A stretch of 64,000 bases of DNA from an uncultured Eubacteriales bacterium (lineage in GTDB: Bacteria > Acidobacteriota > Aminicenantia > Aminicenantales > UBA4085): assembly GCA_964556755.1 (NCBI GenBank), contig CAZKXI010000002.1:88263-152262 (forward strand). The letters are read 5' to 3'. Below, one piece after another: positions 7,166 through 30,165 of this stretch (positions are counted from its first letter, which is position 1; every line of letters begins with the position of its first letter). The notes beneath the pieces were generated by a model, which worked only from the letters and a program-made list of their open reading frames with translations, made no database searches and had not been told where the DNA came from. The position numbers and the translations under genes were made by a program.

Positions 7166-7193
7166 TTGACATCACGGCCCGATTCCCTAAGAT
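7166..7193 (+). promoter_or_regulatory. sigma70-like promoter candidate (TTGACA-N16-TAAGAT) upstream of the HprK-like kinase
   Basis: TTGACA 7166-7171, TAAGAT 7188-7193, in the divergent intergenic region 7090-7210; the predicted TSS would fall at or after the GGAGG RBS (7194-7198), so either a leaderless-like transcript or a coincidental match. Confidence 0.25.
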
Positions 7194-7210: not shown

Positions 7211-8134
7211 ATGTCCGCTCCCTCCGCCGTCCGCTTCTTCCGCGTCGCGGGCATCACCCTGCAAGTGGCTTGCCAGGGGCCCGGACCGGCCCTGCCCTGG
7301 CATCCCAAGCTGGCCGCGTTCGAGGTCGACGGCCCCGGCCCGGACACGGTCGTCATCCGGCACCATCGATCGGCCTTTCCCGGGTCCCCGGACGGGCCGG
7401 GTCCGGCGGTCTACGACAGCCCTCCCTACCGGGTCCATGCCGCGGGCGACGGCTGGATCTACCGCATCGGCGGCGGGGGGGATGGGCGCGTCCAGACCGC
7501 CCTCTTCGCCGGAGACTACAGCCGGGCCGATATCTATACGCCGGAGCCCCTGGCGGTCCCCGAGCAGGGCTTCGAAGCCCTGACCCTGCTGCCGACGGAC
7601 CAGGTCCTCCTGGCTCCCCTGCTGGCCCTTCGGGGCGGCTGCCTCCTGCACGCCGCGGGTGTGGTCCGGGCCGGGGCCGGATGGCTCTTCGCCGGCCATT
7701 CGACGGCCGGAAAGTCCACGATCACGCGGATGATGAAGGGAAGGGCCGAGATCCTCTGCGACGACCGCATCGCCCTGCGCCCCGACGGGAGCGGGGGCTT
7801 CCGCATCCACGGGACGTGGAGCCACGGCGACGTGCCCGACATCTCGCCCTCCTCGGCCCCGTTGACGGAGCTGTTCCTGCTGCGCCAATCCGAAGGGGAT
7901 TCGGCGGCGCCCCTGCCCGACCGCCGGGACGTGGCCCGCAGCCTTCTCGATCTGGTCATCAAGCCGTTGGCCACGACCGCTTGGTGGAGCCTGACCCTGG
8001 AGGCGATCGACCGGATCTCCTCTTCGCTGCGGGCTTGGGATCTGAGCTTCAGCCTGAGCGGGGGAGTCCTTCAAGTCCTTGACCGGATCGAAGCCGGGGA
8101 GCGGGGATTTGACTTTTCCGGCCCGAGCCGCTAA
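7211..8134 (+). CDS. HPr kinase C-terminal domain-like P-loop serine kinase (HprK-related kinase)
   Basis: Walker A FAGHSTAGKST (nt ~7693-7722) followed by AEILCDDRIAL, matching the HprK GxSGxGKS...H-RLVADD arrangement; first ATG after the divergent TPR gene, GGAGG RBS at 7194-7198; TAA 8132-8134. Confidence 0.7.
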   Translation: MSAPSAVRFFRVAGITLQVACQGPGPALPWHPKLAAFEVDGPGPDTVVIRHHRSAFPGSPDGPGPAVYDSPPYRVHAAGDGWIYRIGGGGDGRVQTALFAGDYSRADIYTPEPLAVPEQGFEALTLLPTDQVLLAPLLALRGGCLLHAAGVVRAGAGWLFAGHSTAGKSTITRMMKGRAEILCDDRIALRPDGSGGFRIHGTWSHGDVPDISPSSAPLTELFLLRQSEGDSAAPLPDRRDVARSLLDLVIKPLATTAWWSLTLEAIDRISSSLRAWDLSFSLSGGVLQVLDRIEAGERGFDFSGPSR

Positions 8135-8163
8135 GTTAGGGTCAGATCGCCGAGGAGAAGCCT

Positions 8164-8334
8164 ATGAAGAAGCCGTGGACCACCCCCGAGCTTATCGTCC
8201 TGGTGCGCGTCCAGGCCAACGAGATGGTCCTCGGGACCTGCAAATCCCAGTTCGGCCTGGGGCCGGCCCGGACCAAGACCGGCTGCATGAACGTGACCGG
8301 CGACAGGGCCTGCCAGGGCCACGATAAGAGTTGA
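8164..8334 (+). CDS. 56-aa precursor-like peptide (MKKPWTTPELIVLVRVQANEMVLGTCKSQFGLGPARTKTGCMNVTGDRACQGHDKS); putative RiPP/lasso-like precursor with C-terminal Ser
   Basis: Not in ORF track (<60 aa). GAGGAG RBS 8152-8157, 6 nt before ATG 8164; starts 30 nt after the kinase stop; leader-like W-x-x-P-x-L motif, Thr at -2 before Cys41; putative core CMNVTGDRACQGHDKS has Cys1, Asp7 and a C-terminal Ser; followed by a GC hairpin 8357-8372. Confidence 0.55.
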   Translation: MKKPWTTPELIVLVRVQANEMVLGTCKSQFGLGPARTKTGCMNVTGDRACQGHDKS

Positions 8335-8431
8335 CCGGCCTCGCAGCCGCCTCTCTCCCGCCCCCGGGCGGGGAAATTGACTTCCCCATTTCCCTCCCCT
8401 AGAATAGGCCTATCTTTCGCTTCGGGAAACC

Positions 8432-11251
8432 ATGGATACCATCGGCAAATACCAGATCATCGAAGAGCTCGGCCGCGGCGGGATGGGCGTCATCTACAAA
8501 GCCCTCGATCCGGACATCCACCGCACGGTCGCCATCAAGGTCATCCGCAAGGAGCTTCTGTCCGGAAGCGGGCCGCAGAGCGGCAAGGCCTTGAAGCGAT
8601 TCATGGTCGAAGCCCAGGCCGCCGGGCGGCTGACCCACCCCCACATCGCCACCATCTACGAGGTCGGGCGCCACGAGGACCAGACCTTCATCGTCATGCA
8701 GTACATCGCCGGCCAGAGCCTGCGCAAGCGCCTGGACGCCGGCCGGGCCTTCTCGGCCGAGGAAGCCGCGGACTTGGCCGTCCCGATCTGCCAGGCGCTG
8801 GACTACGCCCACCGTAGCGGCGTCGTTCACCGCGATATCAAACCCGACAACATCCTCCTGGACGGGGACGGCAAGCCCTACCTGGTCGACTTCGGCATCG
8901 CCACCGTGGAATCCGTCGACGTGACCAAGACCAGCACGGTCATGGCCACGCCGGCCTACCAGTCGCCCGAACAAGTCTTGGGCGAGCCGATCGACGCCCG
9001 CTCCGACATCTTCTCCTTCGGCATCGTCCTTTACGAAATGCTGGCCGGCCAGCGGCCCTTCGCCGGCCAGAACTCGACGACCGTGGCCCTGAAGATCGTC
9101 AAGGAAGAGCCGCCCGAGCTTGTGCCCAAGGCCGGCGCCCTGCCGGAGGGATTCGCCGCGGTCGTCCTGAGAGCCCTGGCCAAGCGGCCCGAGGACCGCT
9201 GGGCTTCGGCCGGCGAGATGGCCGAGGCGATCCAGGAGAGCGCCCGCTCGGAGCAGGAGACGACCGTCATCAAGACCCAGCCGAGGGCCACGCTGCCGCG
9301 GACGGCGGCCCGCCGCAAGCCCCGCGCCGGGAGATGGCCGGCTTGGCTCCGCTCGCCGGCCGGAACGGCGGCCGGAATCGCCATCGCCGCCGCGGCCCTT
9401 TTCGGCTTGCTGGTCCTGGGCCGCAAGCTGCTCGTGCGCCCGGCTTCCTTCGAGAACTTGATCACGGTCGCCCCCTTCGCCTATAAGACCCGGGACCTGC
9501 CGGACCGCCTCATCGAGTTCGCTCTGGACCGGGCTCTGACCGCATCAACCCGCATCCCCGTTCTCAGCGGCGACGGCCGCGAGCTGGCGGCGGGGGGCGA
9601 TGGCATCCGGGCCCGCAAGCCGCTGGCCAGGATCTCGGGGACGGTGGTCCCCACCCTGACCGGATTCGACGTCGATGTGACGATCGTCCATAAGGGAGTC
9701 AAGAGCCGCAAGGCCTTCCCCTGTAAGGGCAGCCTCGACTTGATCTCGAGCCGAATCGAAGAGATCCTGGCCTTCCTCAAGTCCCGCTCGGATGGGGACA
9801 TCGGCTCGATCGAGGGCGGGCGGAGCTTTGCCGCCATCTGCACCGCCAACTGGGATGCCTTGACCCACTACCTGAAGGCCCGGGCGGCCTGGGACAAGCT
9901 TGAGTCCAAGACGGCCGCGGCCGAGCTCAAGACGGCCCTGGAGTACGACCCGGATTTCGCCCTGGCCCGGCTGAAAGCGGCCGAAGTGGATTTCTTCCAG
10001 GACGATCGCGTGGTCGCCCAGGCCAACGCCGAGGAGGCTCTGGCCGATGCCGGGCGATTGATCGGCTACGACACGCTCCGCCTGAAAGCCCTCCTGGCCC
10101 GCATCGAGTCCCGGCCGGCCGAGGAGAGGGGCTTCCTGATGCAGCTGAAGGAGGCTTTTCCCGGCAGCCGCGAGTACCTCTACGAGTTCGCCGAATCCTA
10201 TTTCCACACCGGCGACGGAGCCGAGGCCATCCCCTACTACGCCAAGGCCCTGGATTTGGACGGGTCCTATGCCCTGGCCCACAACCACATCGCCTTCTGC
10301 TACGCTTGGACGGGCGACCACGCCAAGGCGGACGAGCATTTCCGCCGCTACGTCGAGCTGGACAAGACGGCCAACTCCTACGATTCCATGGCCTCCGGCC
10401 TGATGTTTGCCGGCCGCTACGCGGAAGCGGTCGCGGCCCTCGACAAGGGCAAGGCCCTGGACGACGGCCTCTACTATCTCTACTCCAACTACGCCACGAA
10501 CTTCGCCCTGACCGGAGCCCTGGCCAAGGCCGAGGAGAGCCTGCGCCGGGAAGCCGACGCCGCGACCGGCGACTCCTCCCGCTTCGACATCCAGTTCGAG
10601 AGGGCCCACATCGCCGCCCTGCGGGGCGACGCGGCCAAGGCCGAGGAGCTGCTGCGGCCCGCCCTGGAATACTACGGGGGCAAGGCCTTCGCCGACCGCC
10701 TGGACGAGTCGCCCATCCGCCCGATCTGGCTCTCCGGCTGCCTGGCCGCCAAGCGCGGCGACAAAGGACGGCTGCGGGCGTCCATCGCCGATCTGGCCCG
10801 GCGGGCCGCGGCCAAGGGGCTGAACGCGGCCAACTACTTCCCGGTCCTCAAGTTCCTGGCCCACCTGAGGGCGTGGCAGGCCCGCCTGGAGAGGGACAGG
10901 GACGGCGTCCTGCGCGAGGTCGAGGAGGCCCAGCGCTTCGAGCCCAAGATGGGATACTGGACCTCGCCTTTCGACCGGGCCTACTTCCTGGACGAGTACG
11001 CCCGGCTCATCCAGGAGGTCGACCCGGCTTCGGCCAAGCCCAAGGAGCTTCTGGGAGGCGTCCTGGCCTACAACGCCAGCTATCCTCCGGCCCTGCTGCG
11101 GATGGCCCGTCTCCTGAAAGCGGAGGGAGACGCGGACGGCGCCAAGCGCCTGCACGACCGAGCCCGCGCCGTCCTGGCCGGCGCGGACGCCGATTCTCTC
11201 CTGGCCAAGGAGCTCGGCGCCGTGGGAACGATCCTAGGAGTCCGGCCATGA
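8432..11251 (+). CDS. Hanks-type Ser/Thr protein kinase with TM segment and large C-terminal TPR-repeat domain
   Basis: GRGGMGVIYKA, AIK, HRDIKPDNILL, DFGIA, SPE kinase subdomains; hydrophobic helix AAGIAIAAAALFGLLVLG; ~600 aa TPR-like repeats. Confidence 0.85.
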   Translation: MDTIGKYQIIEELGRGGMGVIYKALDPDIHRTVAIKVIRKELLSGSGPQSGKALKRFMVEAQAAGRLTHPHIATIYEVGRHEDQTFIVMQYIAGQSLRKRLDAGRAFSAEEAADLAVPICQALDYAHRSGVVHRDIKPDNILLDGDGKPYLVDFGIATVESVDVTKTSTVMATPAYQSPEQVLGEPIDARSDIFSFGIVLYEMLAGQRPFAGQNSTTVALKIVKEEPPELVPKAGALPEGFAAVVLRALAKRPEDRWASAGEMAEAIQESARSEQETTVIKTQPRATLPRTAARRKPRAGRWPAWLRSPAGTAAGIAIAAAALFGLLVLGRKLLVRPASFENLITVAPFAYKTRDLPDRLIEFALDRALTASTRIPVLSGDGRELAAGGDGIRARKPLARISGTVVPTLTGFDVDVTIVHKGVKSRKAFPCKGSLDLISSRIEEILAFLKSRSDGDIGSIEGGRSFAAICTANWDALTHYLKARAAWDKLESKTAAAELKTALEYDPDFALARLKAAEVDFFQDDRVVAQANAEEALADAGRLIGYDTLRLKALLARIESRPAEERGFLMQLKEAFPGSREYLYEFAESYFHTGDGAEAIPYYAKALDLDGSYALAHNHIAFCYAWTGDHAKADEHFRRYVELDKTANSYDSMASGLMFAGRYAEAVAALDKGKALDDGLYYLYSNYATNFALTGALAKAEESLRREADAATGDSSRFDIQFERAHIAALRGDAAKAEELLRPALEYYGGKAFADRLDESPIRPIWLSGCLAAKRGDKGRLRASIADLARRAAAKGLNAANYFPVLKFLAHLRAWQARLERDRDGVLREVEEAQRFEPKMGYWTSPFDRAYFLDEYARLIQEVDPASAKPKELLGGVLAYNASYPPALLRMARLLKAEGDADGAKRLHDRARAVLAGADADSLLAKELGAVGTILGVRP

Positions 11252-12171
11252 ACCCTTCCCTGCATCTCGAGATTCCCGGCCGCGAGCCCGTCATCTACGA
11301 AGTCGCCAACACGACGGGGATCGGGCGGGCCTCGTCCAACCAGATCTGCCTCAAGGAGGACGCCGCCGCCTCGCGCCAGCACGCCCTGATCCGCCGCCAG
11401 GGCGAGCAGGAGTACTACCTCATCGACATGGGCTCGGCCAACGGCACGCTGCTGAACTCCAAGCTGATCATCGGCCCGACCCTGCTGCGCAACGGCGATC
11501 TCATCCAGGTCGGCGAGACGACCTTCCGGTTCGAGCTCCCGGGCCCCTCGCCCGAGGAGGTCGCCAAGCTCAGCCAGACGATATGCGAGAAGACCCAGAT
11601 GGCCGTCCATCTGCGGACCATGGTCATTTTGGTCTGCGACATCCGCAATTTTACCCGCATCGGGGAGCTCCTGACGCCGGACCAGCTGGCCCGCTTCCTG
11701 GGCTCCTGGTTCCGCCAGTCCCAGGAGATCATCGCCTCCCAGGGCGGCGTCGTGGACAAGTACATCGGCGACGCCGTGATGGCCTACTGGCCGGTCTCCT
11801 CCCAATCTCCCACGGAAGCGGCCGAGAACGCGGTCAACGCCGCGTTCCGCATCCAAGCCCTGGCCCGGACGACGACCCTTCCGGAGGGGACCGACTTCCC
11901 CTTCGCGGTCGGGGTCGGCATCAACCAGGGCCTCGTCTCCAGCGGCAACGTCGGGACCCAGTCCCAGCGCGACATGACCATCATGGGCGACGCGGTGACT
12001 CTGGCCTTCCGCCTGGAGTCGGCCTGCAAGGTCAAAGGCATGCCGATCGTGGTGGGAGCGGACATCCACCGGGTCCTGGGCGACAAGTTCAAGTTCATCG
12101 CCCTCGGCCAGGTCAAGCTCAAGGGCAAGACGACCAGCCCGGAGGCCTACGGCCTGAAAGTCGAAGGCTGA
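11248..12171 (+). CDS. FHA-domain class III adenylate/guanylate cyclase
   Basis: Only C-terminal 307 aa of ORF 10306..12171 are real: N-terminal FHA (SRQHALIRRQGEQEYYLIDMGSANGTLLN), then CHD cyclase (ILVCDIRNFT, DKYIGDAVMAYW, GNVGTQ..DMTIMGDAVTLAFRLE); ATG 11248 overlaps kinase stop (ATGA). Confidence 0.8.
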   Translation: MNPSLHLEIPGREPVIYEVANTTGIGRASSNQICLKEDAAASRQHALIRRQGEQEYYLIDMGSANGTLLNSKLIIGPTLLRNGDLIQVGETTFRFELPGPSPEEVAKLSQTICEKTQMAVHLRTMVILVCDIRNFTRIGELLTPDQLARFLGSWFRQSQEIIASQGGVVDKYIGDAVMAYWPVSSQSPTEAAENAVNAAFRIQALARTTTLPEGTDFPFAVGVGINQGLVSSGNVGTQSQRDMTIMGDAVTLAFRLESACKVKGMPIVVGADIHRVLGDKFKFIALGQVKLKGKTTSPEAYGLKVEG

Positions 12172-12174
12172 GTC

Positions 12175-12756
12175 ATGCGCCGAGCATCCAGAACGGGGCG
12201 GGGGGGCGTCGTGGCGCTGGGGCTGTTCGCTCTCTCTTCCTTCAGCCCGGCGGCCCAGGCTCCGGACGCGCGCTTGGCCGCCATCCGGGAGCATTCGGCC
12301 AGGGTCCAGTCGCTCATCGCCGAGGCGGACAAGGAGGCGGAGGGCGGCGGATTCTCCGGCCTCTATTGCACCGAAGTCGCCCTCAACAGCCGCAACGGAT
12401 CCTGGCGGGCGGTCGGGAACTACTACCAGAAGACGGCCTTCTGGCACAGCGACCAGCCGGAATTCGCCGAGGAAGGGCGGTCTGGCGCCTCCGTCCTGAT
12501 CAAGGCCGAGGTCCAGGAAGGCGCGGCTATTCGTACGTCTTACCGGGACTACCTCTTCAAGGACGGCCGCCTGGTCTTCGCTTACGTCAAGGAGAAAGCC
12601 GGCGACGGCCCCTTCGAAGAACGCCGATACTATTACGACGGCGGCAAGCTGTTCCGGGTCCAGATCGGCCAGGACGTAAGAGCCCAGGCGCCCGACGCCG
12701 ACATCGTCCGCGAGGCCGCCGCGCTGCAGGCCCGGTTCCTGGCCCTCTACCGCTGA
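12175..12756 (+). CDS. hypothetical secreted protein (signal peptide)
   Basis: Starts 3 nt after cyclase stop; N-terminal signal peptide VVALGLFALSSFSPAAQA; no recognisable domain. Confidence 0.45.
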   Translation: MRRASRTGRGGVVALGLFALSSFSPAAQAPDARLAAIREHSARVQSLIAEADKEAEGGGFSGLYCTEVALNSRNGSWRAVGNYYQKTAFWHSDQPEFAEEGRSGASVLIKAEVQEGAAIRTSYRDYLFKDGRLVFAYVKEKAGDGPFEERRYYYDGGKLFRVQIGQDVRAQAPDADIVREAAALQARFLALYR

Positions 12757-12808: not shown

Positions 12809-14839
12809 TCAGCGCCGGCGGTACTTGATCAAAAGCGAGCCGCGGGGCTCGGCGATCTTGATATCCAAGCCGGCCGCAAGCTCTCTCCCCTTCTTGATCA
12901 GCGCCAGCCCGTAGTCCTCGAAGGAGACCTCGTAGTCCCCTTCCGCCTCGAGTCCGCGCAGGGCCGGCCGGATCGAGGATGCCTCGGCCTTATCCCGGCG
13001 GAAGGCCAGGATGAGGCCGTCGCCTCTCTCCGGCCGATTCCATTGGAAGGCCGTCCAGGTGTCGTCCGAGGTCGCGTACTCGGTCAGGGGGTAGAAGTCC
13101 GCCGAGAGGAACGGACGCACGGCCCGGAAGTCGGCGATATCGGCCTGGGCCAGATCCGTTCGGAAGGCCGGCTTGTCGAAATCCCAGGCCAGGACGACGG
13201 CCCCGCCGGACAGGGCGGCCCGGAAGGCGTATCGGCTCGGATCGTTGTTGCCGGTCCCGCTATACGGGAGATAGAGCTGCAAGCCGTAGCTGTGGCCCAG
13301 CTCGCCGTTCGGCTCGCAGGGCTCGGAGTCCGTCCGCCACAGGGGGATGCTCCGGCCGACGGTCTCGAGGTCGAGCCGGCGGCCGCCTCCGGCACAGTTG
13401 TCGATCATCAGCCCCGGCACCCTGGCGAGGAGAGAGTCCCAGTAGTCGTAGAGCCCTTCGATATGCCGGATCTCGGAGATGCCGAGCCGGTCGGCGGCGT
13501 CCCGGGACTGCCAATAGGGCGCGGCGTTGATGTTGATGTCCTGGCGGTAGATGGTCACCCCCGATTCGAGGAGGAGGCGCGCCACCTCGTCGATGAGCCA
13601 GGCCCGGGCCCGTGAATTGCCGAGATCGAAGAGCCGGTCGGGCCTGTCAGGAAGGCGGATCAGCCATTCCGGATGCTCCCGGTCGAGACGCGTCCCCTGA
13701 AAGACGCGCTCGGGCTCGAACCACAGGACGAAGCCCTTGCCGCGGCGGCGGGCCTCGTCGCCGACCGGCTTCAGGCCGCGCGGGAAGCGGTCCGGGTCCG
13801 GCCGCAGGGAGCCGACGGTATCCCACCAGTATTGGCCGGGATTGCCCTCGAACCATCCGGCGTCGATCCAGTAGGCGTCGGGATCGAGGCCGAATTGGGC
13901 CAGCCGATCGATCATGGCCAGGACCCGGATCTCGGTGGCGCAGGTGTACTCGCTGCAGGGGGCCGGGCCGCCATAGCCGACGCCGTGGGAGATCGGCGGC
14001 ACGACGGGCGCGCCGCCGGGACGCGGCGCATGGTGGTCGCGGAGAAAGCGGCGAAAGAGATTATGTCCGTCGATTCGGTCGGCGCTCTTCCAAAAGACGA
14101 GGGCCATCGACGGCGAGCGGACCTCCTCGCCGGGATGAAGGCGGAAATGGGTCTTCTCCATCCCTGCGGCCAGGCTGATGGAGCCGCCCGCTTCGCCGCG
14201 GACGACCGCCTTCCAGCGGCCGGTCCAGCCGATGGCGGCCATGATCCCGCGATCGGATCCGGCGATGTTGAAGAACGGCAGGGCGTTGTCGGAGGACCGG
14301 CCGCCGCGGGGGCCGAAGGAGACTTCGGATCCGGCCCGAAGGGTATCGGCGATGGGCGCGAAATCCGATCGGGCGGCGTCGCTGCCGCGGGCCCGATGGA
14401 GCGTGGCGGGCCCCTCGATCAGGCCTTCGAGGCGCAGCGAGGCGATGAGAATATCGCTGAGAACGGGCGAATCGGCCGGACCTTCGTTCTTGAAGCGGAC
14501 AATCCATTCCACGGCCGGGTAGTCCGCATAGAGGGTATAGGCCACGGTCACTCTGAGCTTCGTCGCCGGATCGGAGTAGACGACCGTCTTCAGCGTCTTG
14601 TTCCCGTTCGTCTCGGCCTTGGAGTCAACGCGCCAGCGGCTCAGGAAAGAGGCCGAGGAGCGATCCCCATAGACGAAGGAAAAGGGCGGCGCGGCGGTTC
14701 GCTCGACCCGGGCAGCGACGAATCGGGCCAGGCCGGCCCGGTCATGGAACGCGGCCGGCTCATAGCTCAGGGCCGAAGACACCGCCGCCAGAAAAATCCC
14801 GGTCACTCCCAACGCCGCCGCCGTCGCTCTTCGGATCAT
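12809..14839 (-). CDS. glycoside hydrolase family 36-like alpha-galactosidase (secreted)
   Basis: YWIDAGWF, FVLWFEPERV and DNCAGGGRRLD resemble GH36/GH27 (clan GH-D) catalytic motifs; signal peptide after internal Met (MIRRATAAALGVTGIFLAAVSS) so start set at 14839. Confidence 0.65.
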   Translation of the reverse strand: MIRRATAAALGVTGIFLAAVSSALSYEPAAFHDRAGLARFVAARVERTAAPPFSFVYGDRSSASFLSRWRVDSKAETNGNKTLKTVVYSDPATKLRVTVAYTLYADYPAVEWIVRFKNEGPADSPVLSDILIASLRLEGLIEGPATLHRARGSDAARSDFAPIADTLRAGSEVSFGPRGGRSSDNALPFFNIAGSDRGIMAAIGWTGRWKAVVRGEAGGSISLAAGMEKTHFRLHPGEEVRSPSMALVFWKSADRIDGHNLFRRFLRDHHAPRPGGAPVVPPISHGVGYGGPAPCSEYTCATEIRVLAMIDRLAQFGLDPDAYWIDAGWFEGNPGQYWWDTVGSLRPDPDRFPRGLKPVGDEARRRGKGFVLWFEPERVFQGTRLDREHPEWLIRLPDRPDRLFDLGNSRARAWLIDEVARLLLESGVTIYRQDININAAPYWQSRDAADRLGISEIRHIEGLYDYWDSLLARVPGLMIDNCAGGGRRLDLETVGRSIPLWRTDSEPCEPNGELGHSYGLQLYLPYSGTGNNDPSRYAFRAALSGGAVVLAWDFDKPAFRTDLAQADIADFRAVRPFLSADFYPLTEYATSDDTWTAFQWNRPERGDGLILAFRRDKAEASSIRPALRGLEAEGDYEVSFEDYGLALIKKGRELAAGLDIKIAEPRGSLLIKYRRR

Positions 14840-14896
14840 GGGGCCACTATAATGATTCTCCGCCGCCTCTTCAATCCTGCCGGGGCGCGGAATCTG

Positions 14897-14939
14897 GCGC
14901 GCCTGGGGTGACTCGAACACCCGACCAACGGTTTAGGAA
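14897..14939. repeat. attL: 43-bp direct repeat (3' portion of tRNA-Arg)
   Basis: gcgcgcctggggtgactcgaacacccgaccaacggtttaggaa identical to 28384-28426. Confidence 0.85.
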
Positions 14940-14956: not shown

Positions 14957-16105
14957 TTAATTATAGCGTATTGAATCACTTGGGAGCCGCTTGATTTTTA
15001 CGGTGTCGACTTTTTGACGGGATGGATCCATGATTTCGCCCAGCCGCTCAACGGCCCGGCGCATGTTCTCCGGCGTCGGATGGCAATAGCGCATGGTCGT
15101 TTGAATCGACGCATGCCCGAGCACCTTGGAGACCGTGACCAGGTCGACGCCGGCCTCGACCATCTTCGAGGCCGCGGTATGCCTCAGGTCATGGAAGCGG
15201 ACTCCTGTGATCCCCGGATCATCCTCATCGTTGAGATCCGTCTTCGCCTTCCTGCAGGCCGCATGGAAGGCCGTCTTCACGTCCTGGACTGGCTTCGTCG
15301 GATCGGCGCCGGGGAAGACGTATTCCCCCTTCCTGGGAAGGACGGCCAGGGCCTCCATGACAGCGCTGTTGACGGGCACCTTGCGGCCCCTGCCGCTCTT
15401 GGAGTCCTCGATATTGATATAGCCGCGGACCAGGTCGACGTTTGTCCATCGGAGGCCCAGGATCTCGCTCCGCCGCATGCCCGTGTTCAAGGCCACTATG
15501 AGGACAGGGCGGAACGTGTTCGACGCCGACCGGAGGAGCCGATGAGCCTCTCCCGCCGACAGGATCCGCTCTCGAGCGTTGGCCTCTTTCAGCCTTCGGA
15601 CGCGTCGGATGGGGTTCTTCTCGATTCTCCCCCACTCCTCAGCCTTGTTGAAGAGGGTCTTCAGGCATGTCAGCTCTCGGTTGACCGTCGCCGGCGAGAT
15701 CGGAGCGGACTTCTTCGCGTTGTAGTGCTTGACCCGCTCGGCCCGCCGGCCGGCCTTGAACCGCTCCACGTCCTCGGAGCCGATCCCCTGGAGGGAGCGC
15801 CCGGAGAAGTAGCGCTTGAGGTTGTCCAGAAGGATCTCGTCCCGCTTCCAGGAGCGCTTGTTCTGCTTACAGTAGACCTCGAGGAATTCGTCTGCGAAGG
15901 CATCGAAGGGAACGGGATCCCCGCCAGCCTTCTTGAAGCCGAGCCGCTCATTCAGGAGCTCGATGCGGAGCTTCGCCAGGGCGTTCCGGGCCTGTTCCTT
16001 AGTGTATCCCCCGAGCTGACGGATTCGCTTCCCTCGGAAGGTGAAGTCGATATGCCACCTCCCATCCTTTTGGATTAGGTTCCGGTCATTCTTCGGTTTG
16101 ACCAT
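14957..16105 (-). CDS. int: tyrosine-type site-specific integrase (phage integrase family)
   Basis: C-terminal catalytic region RFHDLRHTAAS..LGHASIQTTMRYCH (R..HxxR..Y) and N-terminal SAM-like/arm-binding region; lies immediately inside attL. Confidence 0.85.
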   Translation of the reverse strand: MVKPKNDRNLIQKDGRWHIDFTFRGKRIRQLGGYTKEQARNALAKLRIELLNERLGFKKAGGDPVPFDAFADEFLEVYCKQNKRSWKRDEILLDNLKRYFSGRSLQGIGSEDVERFKAGRRAERVKHYNAKKSAPISPATVNRELTCLKTLFNKAEEWGRIEKNPIRRVRRLKEANARERILSAGEAHRLLRSASNTFRPVLIVALNTGMRRSEILGLRWTNVDLVRGYINIEDSKSGRGRKVPVNSAVMEALAVLPRKGEYVFPGADPTKPVQDVKTAFHAACRKAKTDLNDEDDPGITGVRFHDLRHTAASKMVEAGVDLVTVSKVLGHASIQTTMRYCHPTPENMRRAVERLGEIMDPSRQKVDTVKIKRLPSDSIRYN

Positions 16106-28383: not shown

Positions 28384-28426
28384 GCGCGCCTGGGGTGACT
28401 CGAACACCCGACCAACGGTTTAGGAA
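28384..28426. repeat. attR: 43-bp direct repeat within tRNA-Arg 3' half
   Basis: Identical to 14897-14939. Confidence 0.85.
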
Positions 28427-28458
28427 ACCGCTGCTCTATCCGACTGAGCTACAGGCGC
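28385..28458 (-). tRNA. tRNA-Arg (anticodon CCT)
   Basis: Minus-strand cloverleaf: acceptor GCGCCTG/CAGGCGC, D-arm GCTCAGTCGGATAGAGC, anticodon loop TTCCTAA, T-arm GGGTGTTCGAGTCACCC; 74 nt without CCA. Confidence 0.85.
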
Positions 28459-28503: not shown

Positions 28504-30165
28504 TCAATCCTCCGGCGGCGGCGCCGTCTCCTCGTCGGCCCCCGTCTCGCGGCCGCCGCGGATGCCGATGAAGCGCTTGAGGTAATCCAGGATGCGGCGC
28601 TTGCTGGTCCCGGCCTGCACGTCCTTCTCCGAGAGGTCCTTGATCTTCAGAAGGCTCTCGCGGTTCTGCTCGTTGCGGGCGCTGACCAGCTCGGCGATGA
28701 CTTCGGCCAGATCGGGATTCTTGGCCAGGACCGGGCCGAAGTCCTCGGCCCGGATCTTCAGCAGGACGGCCTCCTCCTCGATGACGCCGGTCGCGGTCCT
28801 CGGCATCCCGGTAAAGAGCGACATCTCGCCGAACAAGCCGCCCGGGCCGACGCTGAACGAGGACGTATAGGACCGGCCCTCGTCCTGGGTCACGATCTCG
28901 CCGCGGATCCGGCCGCGGACGATGACATAGGCGCTGCGCCCCTTGTCGCCCTGGCGGAAGAGGACCTCGCCCCTGGCGTAGACGGCCGGGGTGACGACCG
29001 CGGCCAGATCCCGGACGTCGTCCTCGGGCACCAGGAGCTCCCCCGGGCCCCCGGCCTTGGGGCGGCGCAGGAAGGCCGACTTCATGAGCGCCGCATAGCT
29101 CTCCTCGGCCGCCTCCCCCGCCGGCCCGGCCGCCCCGGTCGGGACGGCTCGACCCGTCCCGGCCGCGATCCCGACCATGGCCTTCAAGCCCTCGGCCGCC
29201 GGCACGGCGATCTCGAAGCCCTTGCGGCGAAGCTTGTACCAGGCCAGCCGGCCGACGTCGGTGATGATGCTGTGCTTGCGGGCGTAGTCCGTGACCCAGA
29301 ACTTCAGAAGGTAGGAGACACCCATCTCATCGAAGCTCTGCAGGTAGGCCAGCGGAGCCGGATCGCACACGACCGCCGGGCAGTCCCGGGCGGCTTCGAC
29401 CAAGACGGCCAGCACCTCTCCCGCCGGAGCCTGGGGGCTCAGCTTAAAGGGCAGGAAGAGGGCCGTCCGGCCGTCCGGCTGGGCGTAGTTGATGATTCTC
29501 TCCGAGGCCACGATCGTGTTGGGCAGAACGATGATGTTCGAGGCTCGGTCCAAGATGCGCGTCTCCCGCCAGTTCGTGTCGACGACGATACCCTCGTGCG
29601 CTCCGATCTGGACCCAATCGCCGCGGCTGATGGAGCGGACGAAGTGCAGCGAGGCCCCCGAGAGGATGTTGCCCAGCACGCCCTGCAGGGCCAGGCCCAG
29701 GACCATGGTCAGGATGGCCGAGGCGCCCAGGATCGGCGAAAGATCGATCTTCAGGATGGCCTTGAGGACGATGAAGAGGACGGCCAGCTCCATGATCCCC
29801 AGCACCAGGTTGCGCAGGACGCCCGGCATGGGAAAGGACTTGTGCGACCGGCCATACCAGATCGAGAGCAGGGCGTCGAACAGGCGGATGAGAAGGAAGA
29901 AGACGAAGAAGACCACGCCCGCGTCGACATAGGGCTGGAACGCCGCCGGCACCGGGAGGAAGGCGGACATTCCGGCGAAAGCCAGGCCGAAGACGGCCGG
30001 AAAGCTCAGGCGGGCCATCAGGATCCGCCCGGTCCGGCCCATTCCGGCGGCGAAGCGGCCGGCCAGGAAGCGCGTGATCAGATACAGCAGGAGAGCCCCG
30101 GCGACGATCAGGAGATAGACCGACAGGGTCCCGTAGATCGAGCGCGGCGCCGAGGCGTCCATCAC
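28504..30165 (-). CDS. mechanosensitive channel MscS family protein with C-terminal cyclic-nucleotide-binding domain
   Basis: MscS TM3/beta-domain region (LGLALQGVLGNILSGASLHFVRSISRGDWV), then cNMP-binding motif FGEMSLF..PRTATGV. Confidence 0.8.
   Translation of the reverse strand: MMDASAPRSIYGTLSVYLLIVAGALLLYLITRFLAGRFAAGMGRTGRILMARLSFPAVFGLAFAGMSAFLPVPAAFQPYVDAGVVFFVFFLLIRLFDALLSIWYGRSHKSFPMPGVLRNLVLGIMELAVLFIVLKAILKIDLSPILGASAILTMVLGLALQGVLGNILSGASLHFVRSISRGDWVQIGAHEGIVVDTNWRETRILDRASNIIVLPNTIVASERIINYAQPDGRTALFLPFKLSPQAPAGEVLAVLVEAARDCPAVVCDPAPLAYLQSFDEMGVSYLLKFWVTDYARKHSIITDVGRLAWYKLRRKGFEIAVPAAEGLKAMVGIAAGTGRAVPTGAAGPAGEAAEESYAALMKSAFLRRPKAGGPGELLVPEDDVRDLAAVVTPAVYARGEVLFRQGDKGRSAYVIVRGRIRGEIVTQDEGRSYTSSFSVGPGGLFGEMSLFTGMPRTATGVIEEEAVLLKIRAEDFGPVLAKNPDLAEVIAELVSARNEQNRESLLKIKDLSEKDVQAGTSKRRILDYLKRFIGIRGGRETGADEETAPPPED

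Follow-up and report, generated by a model that had tools for sequence, protein, structure and literature searches.

An ScmC-type kinase-peptide pair and a Ser/Thr kinase-FHA-cyclase pair are probably autonomous neighbors in one Aminicenantes lineage

The five genes (g1 to g5) that occupy positions 7211-12756 on the + strand of a 64-kb stretch of contig CAZKXI010000002.1, hereafter the window, are probably two autonomous modules which are neighbors in one Aminicenantes lineage alone, and not one operon. The first module, unit A, comprises a promoter-like site (P1), a ScmC-family P-loop kinase with an HprK/PEPCK-like fold (g1, 7211-8134, 307 aa) and a 56-aa precursor peptide of the RiPP type (peptides made by ribosomes and then modified post-translationally; g2, 8164-8334). 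The second, unit B, comprises another promoter-like site (P2), a 939-aa Hanks-type Ser/Thr kinase (STK) with one transmembrane segment and a TPR-rich domain (g3, 8432-11251), a 307-aa protein combining an FHA domain with a class III nucleotide cyclase domain (g4, 11248-12171) and, in this genome, a 193-aa variable accessory protein (g5, 12175-12756). All five genes are present, on one strand, as a sequence-only reading of the interval had described them. The same reading took them for a single operon coupling peptide phosphorylation to STK, FHA and cyclic nucleotide signaling, and named a lack of co-conservation as a finding that would speak against it; because the five genes are indeed not co-conserved, we favor two modules. 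That units A and B should be linked in function is neither required nor indicated. The window has a G+C content of 64-71%, and its nearest relatives are Aminicenantes/Acidobacteriota metagenome-assembled genomes (MAGs).

Gene-order comparisons carry this conclusion. In the clade to which the window belongs, the whole block upstream of the interval (QueH, HypF, DZR, an M50 peptidase, a ferredoxin and a 218-aa TPR protein) is syntenic, and the adjacency of the two units inside the clade therefore reflects common descent. The g1-g2 pair is retained throughout at g1 identities spanning 53-96%, and the composition of the remainder varies. One relative (L004, g1 64% identical) carries g1, g2, g4 and g5 without the STK gene; another (L005, g1 53% identical) carries g1 to g4 with a PadR gene in the place of g5, which is itself present in L001 and L004 and gives way to other genes in L005, L096, L097 and L098. 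Outside the clade, six contexts of FHA-cyclase orthologs were compared, and none (0/6) contains ScmC or a precursor peptide. The STK adjoins the FHA-cyclase in four of the six: L096 (g4 72% identical), where the upstream block is kept and the 218-aa gene is followed directly by the STK and FHA-cyclase genes with no g1 or g2; L097 (67%), where the pair shows the same 4-nt overlap in a different neighborhood; L098 (54%), a Verrucomicrobiota locus with an STK, an FHA-cyclase and a metallophosphoesterase, likewise in another neighborhood; and the context of P0291 (69%), a divergent operon of FHA, PP2C and STK genes. The two further contexts hold neither STK nor ScmC. Reciprocally, in a survey of 79 ScmC loci from other species, all outside the window clade, searches (tblastn) with the domains of g3 and g4 yielded no cyclase match, one FHA match and two kinase matches, and radical S-adenosylmethionine (radical-SAM) genes lie beside ScmC in 77 of the 79. 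The comparative check by which the operon proposal was to be judged thus came out against it: the halves occur independently, and individual close relatives lack either g3 or g5.

In a consensus scan of 6.1 kb, only two sites resembled sigma-70 promoters, where chance would yield 0.4, and these sit just upstream of g1 (P1, TTGACA-16-TAAGAT, 7166-7193, +) and of g3 (P2, TTGACT-17-TAGAAT, 8377-8405, +). The P1 element, CCTTGACA ... T(A/G)AGAT, is conserved in all five clade loci (alignment A6). The P2 element, TTGACTT-N17-TAGAAT, is invariant in six loci in an alignment whose mean column identity is 36%; it lies upstream of the STK gene in the window, L001, L005, L096 and L097, and upstream of the FHA-cyclase gene in L004. 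P2 is thereby retained in L096 and L097, where no ScmC or peptide gene lies upstream. In L004 (10489-10696) the next gene after it is that of the FHA-cyclase, whose 5' leader is longer, an arrangement suggestive of a clean deletion of the STK gene. The g3-g4 pair thus clearly has a conserved predicted promoter of its own. The spacers from g1 to g5 measure 29, 97, -4 and 3 nt; the 4-nt ATGA overlap that translationally couples g3 and g4 is the only one, a 3-nt spacer (TGAGTCATG) separates g4 from g5, and the earlier claim of two such overlaps is therefore wrong. Co-conserved members and the lack of a conserved internal promoter would mark a single operon. Here the halves are independent elsewhere and g3 stands under the invariant P2, and the proposal of one five-gene operon is not supported.

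The identification of g1 as an HprK-like kinase was correct. Its top NCBIfam match is ScmC (TIGR04249; 45.7 bits, E = 5.4e-12), with residues 141-251 alone matched and a score below the equivalog cutoff of 125 bits. Its membership in the ScmC family PF27840 rests on homology to annotated members: PF27840 is annotated on all 120 g1 homologs among the matches listed, including P0001, which is 96% identical to g1 over its full length, and the corresponding called genes of L001-L007 bear the label PF27840:ScmC. An alignment of 27 sequences displays the motifs F-x-G-H-S-x-A-G-K-S (the P-loop), C-D-D-R and G-T-W-S-H-G, of which the P-loop and C-D-D-R are invariant, and g1 retains every family-invariant residue. 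Given that a sequence search of the PDB returned HprK at an E-value of 0.017 only, a comparison of folds was needed. The AlphaFold2 (AF2) model of g1 is confident (predicted local distance difference test score, pLDDT, 88.9), and structure comparison supports the HprK/PEPCK fold. The protein accordingly combines a P-loop, the His-Lys-Asp-Asp catalytic residues and the fold of this kinase group.

The small gene downstream, preceded by GAGGAG, is a genuine conserved peptide gene under purifying selection: five close homologs are 79-93% identical, and pairwise dN/dS ratios (nonsynonymous over synonymous substitution rates) are 0.08-0.16 with synonymous sites near saturation. The 56-aa sequence contains, as described earlier, six Thr and a C-terminal Ser (S56), together with three Cys, a leader of the form MKKxWxxPELIVLVR..E.VLG and a core that begins at C26-K27. 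A profile search gathered at least 524 clusters (50% identity) at E ≤ 1e-3, with peptides of 54-65 aa (family P0121-P0275), and 152 of these sequences were analyzed. The leader motif W-x-x-P-x-L...E.VL..CK is found in 149 of the 152; 127 of them end in Ser and 18 in Thr (145/152, 95%, against about 20% expected from composition), and most cores have 3-4 Cys, the canonical number being four and that of the window subfamily three. With its length, leader, C-K core start, three Cys and C-terminal Ser, g2 has all the features of an SCM-like precursor (about 55-65 aa, 3-4 Cys, C-terminal Ser or Thr), SCM standing for SynChlorMet, the name of the cassette that includes ScmC. What the family conserves is this terminal residue (Ser or Thr, in most cases Ser); conservation does not extend to the Thr residues of g2. 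No NCBIfam model recognizes the peptides of this family. We note that a few proteins (P0215 and P0172) carry two precursor-like repeats.

The usual surroundings of such genes are considerably richer than those of g1 and g2. The 79 ScmC loci derive from phyla and lineages that include Omnitrophota, Desulfobacterota, Chloroflexota, other Aminicenantes and Methanotrichaceae, and their canonical gene order is radical-SAM, ScmC, radical-SAM, PqqD, S24-like peptidase, radical-SAM, and the series ends with one or two precursor genes that are homologs of g2; in L007, for instance, small open reading frames (ORFs) homologous to g2 come after the radical-SAM genes. In a deltaproteobacterial MAG (L061, 5353-10876) ScmC and the first radical-SAM gene form a single fused ORF of 646 aa. 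The L007 cassette enzymes score 31-87 bits against TIGR cutoffs of 100-400, and because such scores lie far below the equivalog cutoffs, g1 and the related canonical cassettes are assigned on sequence grounds to an SCM-like sister group, not to the curated SCM system. The literature library searched contained nothing on the SCM-like cassette and no paper that names SynChlorMet. Searching the 64-kb window with the L007 proteins (tblastn) matched g1 only and found no radical-SAM, PqqD or peptidase homolog, and a tblastn search for a second precursor gene in the window found none. ScmC, radical-SAM/SPASM and PqqD genes, which together define an SCM or SCM-like cassette, are thus not combined here, and the usual partners of unit A (radical-SAM/SPASM maturases, the PqqD chaperone and the S24-like peptidase) do not lie within the 64 kb. 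Unit A is, as far as its genes can be classified, a trimmed SCM-like RiPP cassette of one predicted kinase and one predicted precursor, in which g1 would use ATP to phosphorylate the g2 precursor, likeliest at the near-invariant S56. Any further maturation would need enzymes encoded elsewhere in the genome.

This last point leads to the strongest of the alternatives, namely that g1 and g2 are an auxiliary copy whose product is finished in trans by a full radical-SAM/PqqD/peptidase cassette elsewhere in the genome; unit A would then not be a minimal system sufficient by itself. We regard it as a real, if less than even, possibility. Members of the g2 subfamily, which is marked by the motif CMNVxGxxAC, are encountered in three contexts: within canonical radical-SAM cassettes (L088, L092-L094), in the arrangement of the window, and, in a lineage whose G+C content is 42-48%, as genes standing alone (L089, 6560-6730; L090, 9989-10159; L091, 687-899). 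The stand-alone genes have no ScmC, radical-SAM, STK or cyclase gene within 6-10 kb, which implies that maturation enzymes can act in trans. Canonical cassettes are present in other Aminicenantes, and the leader, presumably recognized by PqqD-type proteins, is fully conserved in g2. Set against this are the lack of any radical-SAM or PqqD homolog in the window and the consideration that, were a full cassette present, a separate copy of ScmC would be superfluous.

Unit B has the predicted makeup of a conventional transmembrane signaling pair. In g3, Pkinase matches residues 7-258 (E = 2.6e-51), TPR matches extend from about 476 to 645 and a single hydrophobic segment lies at 309-336, from which the C-terminal ~600 aa are predicted to be extracytoplasmic; the earlier description of a Hanks-type STK with a TPR part of about 600 aa and one transmembrane segment was accurate. 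The kinase domain carries HRDIKPDN, DFG, the VAIK lysine and a Thr-rich activation loop. The assignment of g4 as an FHA-domain class III cyclase was likewise borne out by matches to FHA (25-89, 6.4e-18) and Guanylate_cyc (125-296, 2.2e-16). FHA domains read phosphothreonine (pThr), and the pThr-binding residues R27, S42, R43, H45 and N65 are invariant in g4. Its cyclase domain has the metal-binding D131 and D175, the adenylate-cyclase-like specificity pair K171/T244 and R255; the position of the transition-state Asn is occupied by Thr251 (11998-12000), as it is by Thr in 41 of 117 relatives, and the change from Asn to Thr is seemingly fixed in a subgroup of close relatives. A competent kinase active site, intact pThr-binding residues and recurrent genomic pairing are thus all found, as expected of an STK and its FHA effector. 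The FHA domain of the cyclase probably recognizes autophosphorylation of the STK: the extracytoplasmic TPR domain would sense a cue, the STK would autophosphorylate on Thr, the FHA domain of g4 would dock on this pThr, and docking would control the dimerization or activity of the Lys/Thr-type, adenylate-cyclase-like catalytic domain. Of the circuit proposed earlier, the step from STK to FHA-cyclase is therefore supported by the coupled genes and by the pairing in four of six contexts, and the coupling to a peptide, with ScmC or peptide in none of the six, is not. As to g5, earlier called a secreted protein, its N-terminus resembles a signal peptide, the protein has no Pfam or NCBIfam match, and its single-sequence AF2 model (pLDDT 54) is too poor for a fold search.

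Several observations nonetheless weigh against two autonomous modules. A convincing terminator is missing between g2 and g3, where the hairpin does not exceed shuffled sequence in stability (z = -0.12) and was not counted as evidence, and read-through transcription from g2 into g3 is possible. In all four or five clade lineages, g1 and g2 lie directly upstream of P2. Among the 79 ScmC loci, L061 is the sole one with FHA and STK genes both near. The Thr in place of the catalytic Asn makes the cyclase activity of g4 uncertain. Finally, both the kinase activity of ScmC and its target residue are predictions throughout the family; by analogy with the kinases PadeK, ThcoK and PsmK, g1 probably phosphorylates its precursor, likely at the C-terminal Ser.

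Some of these observations could be taken to favor one operon circuit, in which the HprK-like kinase phosphorylates the peptide and the FHA domain reads the phosphopeptide or the STK, gating the synthesis of cyclic nucleotide monophosphates (cNMPs), or in which the exported peptide is the ligand of the TPR sensor. Tight spacing on one strand, the order g1-g2-(g3)-g4 kept in four clade lineages and the lack of a significant terminator after g2 are consistent with such a circuit, as are a weak resemblance of the g3 sensor region to TIGR04510 ("putative peptide modification system cyclase") and the STK and FHA genes beside the L061 cassette. We nevertheless consider it very improbable. The two halves are independent almost everywhere else, adjacency in the clade (where the whole upstream region is syntenic) is due to descent and not to selected linkage, L096 shows this synteny with g1 and g2 missing, and the promoter P2 is invariant. 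A C-terminal Ser is the conserved candidate for phosphorylation, whereas FHA domains read pThr, and the unit has neither an exporter nor a leader peptidase. As to the family resemblance, g3 matches TIGR04510 at 65 bits against a cutoff of 400 and TIGR03903 at 145 against 705.75, and the STK sensor domains of L096 and L097, which have no peptide neighbor, match TIGR04510 at 69 and 60 bits; with peptide-less orthologs scoring as high and generic TPR models scoring comparably, both models were rejected as a link between g3 and RiPP biosynthesis. The L061 arrangement, where an STK gene (- strand) and a gene for an FHA-GAF-histidine kinase lie directly upstream of a canonical cassette, was treated as a single coincidence among 79 loci. 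A related scenario, a unit A captured directly upstream of unit B and wired into it such that g2, phosphorylated by g1, would be a substrate of, a ligand of or a decoy for either the STK sensor or the FHA domain, appears very improbable; if it were true, a ribosomal peptide would control cAMP synthesis, with a cNMP-binding MscS-type channel as a possible output. Least probable is that a former cassette was lost and that g1 and g2 are its decaying, now functionless remains, for even with all partner enzymes missing locally, the low dN/dS of g2 with dS near saturation, the complete set of invariant catalytic residues and confident fold of g1, the conservation of P1 and of the ribosome-binding site, and the persistence of the pair at 53-96% g1 identity all argue otherwise.

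The reading of the interval as a new signaling architecture does not hold, and the significance of the locus, which is modest, shifts to its parts. The ScmC-associated precursor family, with its at least 524 clusters at 50% identity, represents a widespread RiPP class for which the Ser/Thr ends of the peptides and the His-Lys-Asp-Asp kinase raise the hypothesis of C-terminal phosphorylation; ScmC proteins may be the C-terminal Ser/Thr kinases of this large uncharacterized family. The window clade, having one kinase, one peptide and no radical-SAM enzymes near, is the simplest system in which to test this. In the STK/FHA-cyclase pair, a common design of signaling appears in clean form.

Further downstream, and outside the five-gene interval, the segment 14897-28458 looks like an integrated island or prophage in a tRNA-Arg gene. 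A 43-bp direct repeat (14897-14939 and 28384-28426) duplicates the 3' part of tRNA-Arg(CCT) (28384-28458, -), a tyrosine integrase gene (14957-16105, -) adjoins the partial tRNA copy, and the 13.5 kb between the repeats have a G+C content of 60-64% against about 68% and hold mostly family-less genes and an AAA_25 protein. The listed start of a GH36-like (melibiase) ORF (12809-14920, -) falls within the att-like repeat (14897-14939), and the real start probably lies further downstream. Beyond the island lies a gene for an MscS-type channel with a cNMP-binding domain (28504-30165, -), separated from the FHA-cyclase mainly by the integrated segment. An ortholog of this channel (62% identical) is found in L005 (18564-20180), 3.4 kb downstream of the FHA-cyclase. 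The channel is possibly an effector of the cyclase, or its position may simply reflect conserved synteny.

Among known systems, the TOMM (thiazole/oxazole-modified microcin) kinase/cyclase fusion (TIGR03903) and TIGR04510 likewise bring together kinase, cyclase and TPR parts in the vicinity of a RiPP precursor, and g3 matches both models; with 145 bits where the cutoff is 706, and 65 where it is 400, the scores fall far short, and the matches come from generic kinase and TPR regions. The closest relative of unit A is the SynChlorMet cassette (ScmC, TIGR04249/PF27840; ScmD, TIGR04248; ScmE, TIGR04250; ScmF, TIGR04251): g1 is homologous to ScmC, and g2 belongs to a precursor family found beside ScmC-containing cassettes in dozens of phyla, whereas the window holds no radical-SAM/SPASM, PqqD or peptidase genes. 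PadeK, ThcoK and PsmK, the HprK-like kinases of paeninodin-type lasso peptides, carry a His-Lys-Asp-Asp motif, and the residue they phosphorylate is the highly conserved Ser at the C-terminus of linear lasso precursors (PMC9266682). The likeness lies in an HprK-type P-loop kinase with the same His-Lys-Asp-Asp set and an adjoining precursor with a conserved C-terminal Ser. Unlike the paeninodin loci, neither the five genes nor their flanks encode a lasso cyclase or the B1/B2 (RiPP recognition element and leader protease) domains, matches to the PadeA-family precursor model are not significant (E = 0.13), and g2 is Cys-rich and its family is tied to radical-SAM chemistry.

For unit B, the comparison is with Hanks-type STKs and their FHA effectors. 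FHA-fused class III adenylate cyclases exist, for example the cyanobacterial Cya1-type enzymes, and cyanobacterial FHA-cyclases are among the homologs of g4. The large extracytoplasmic TPR domain on g3 and the Thr in the position of the catalytic Asn in g4 set the pair apart; g3 and g4 resemble these systems in their standard domains, catalytic and pThr-binding residues, translational coupling and recurrence as a pair.

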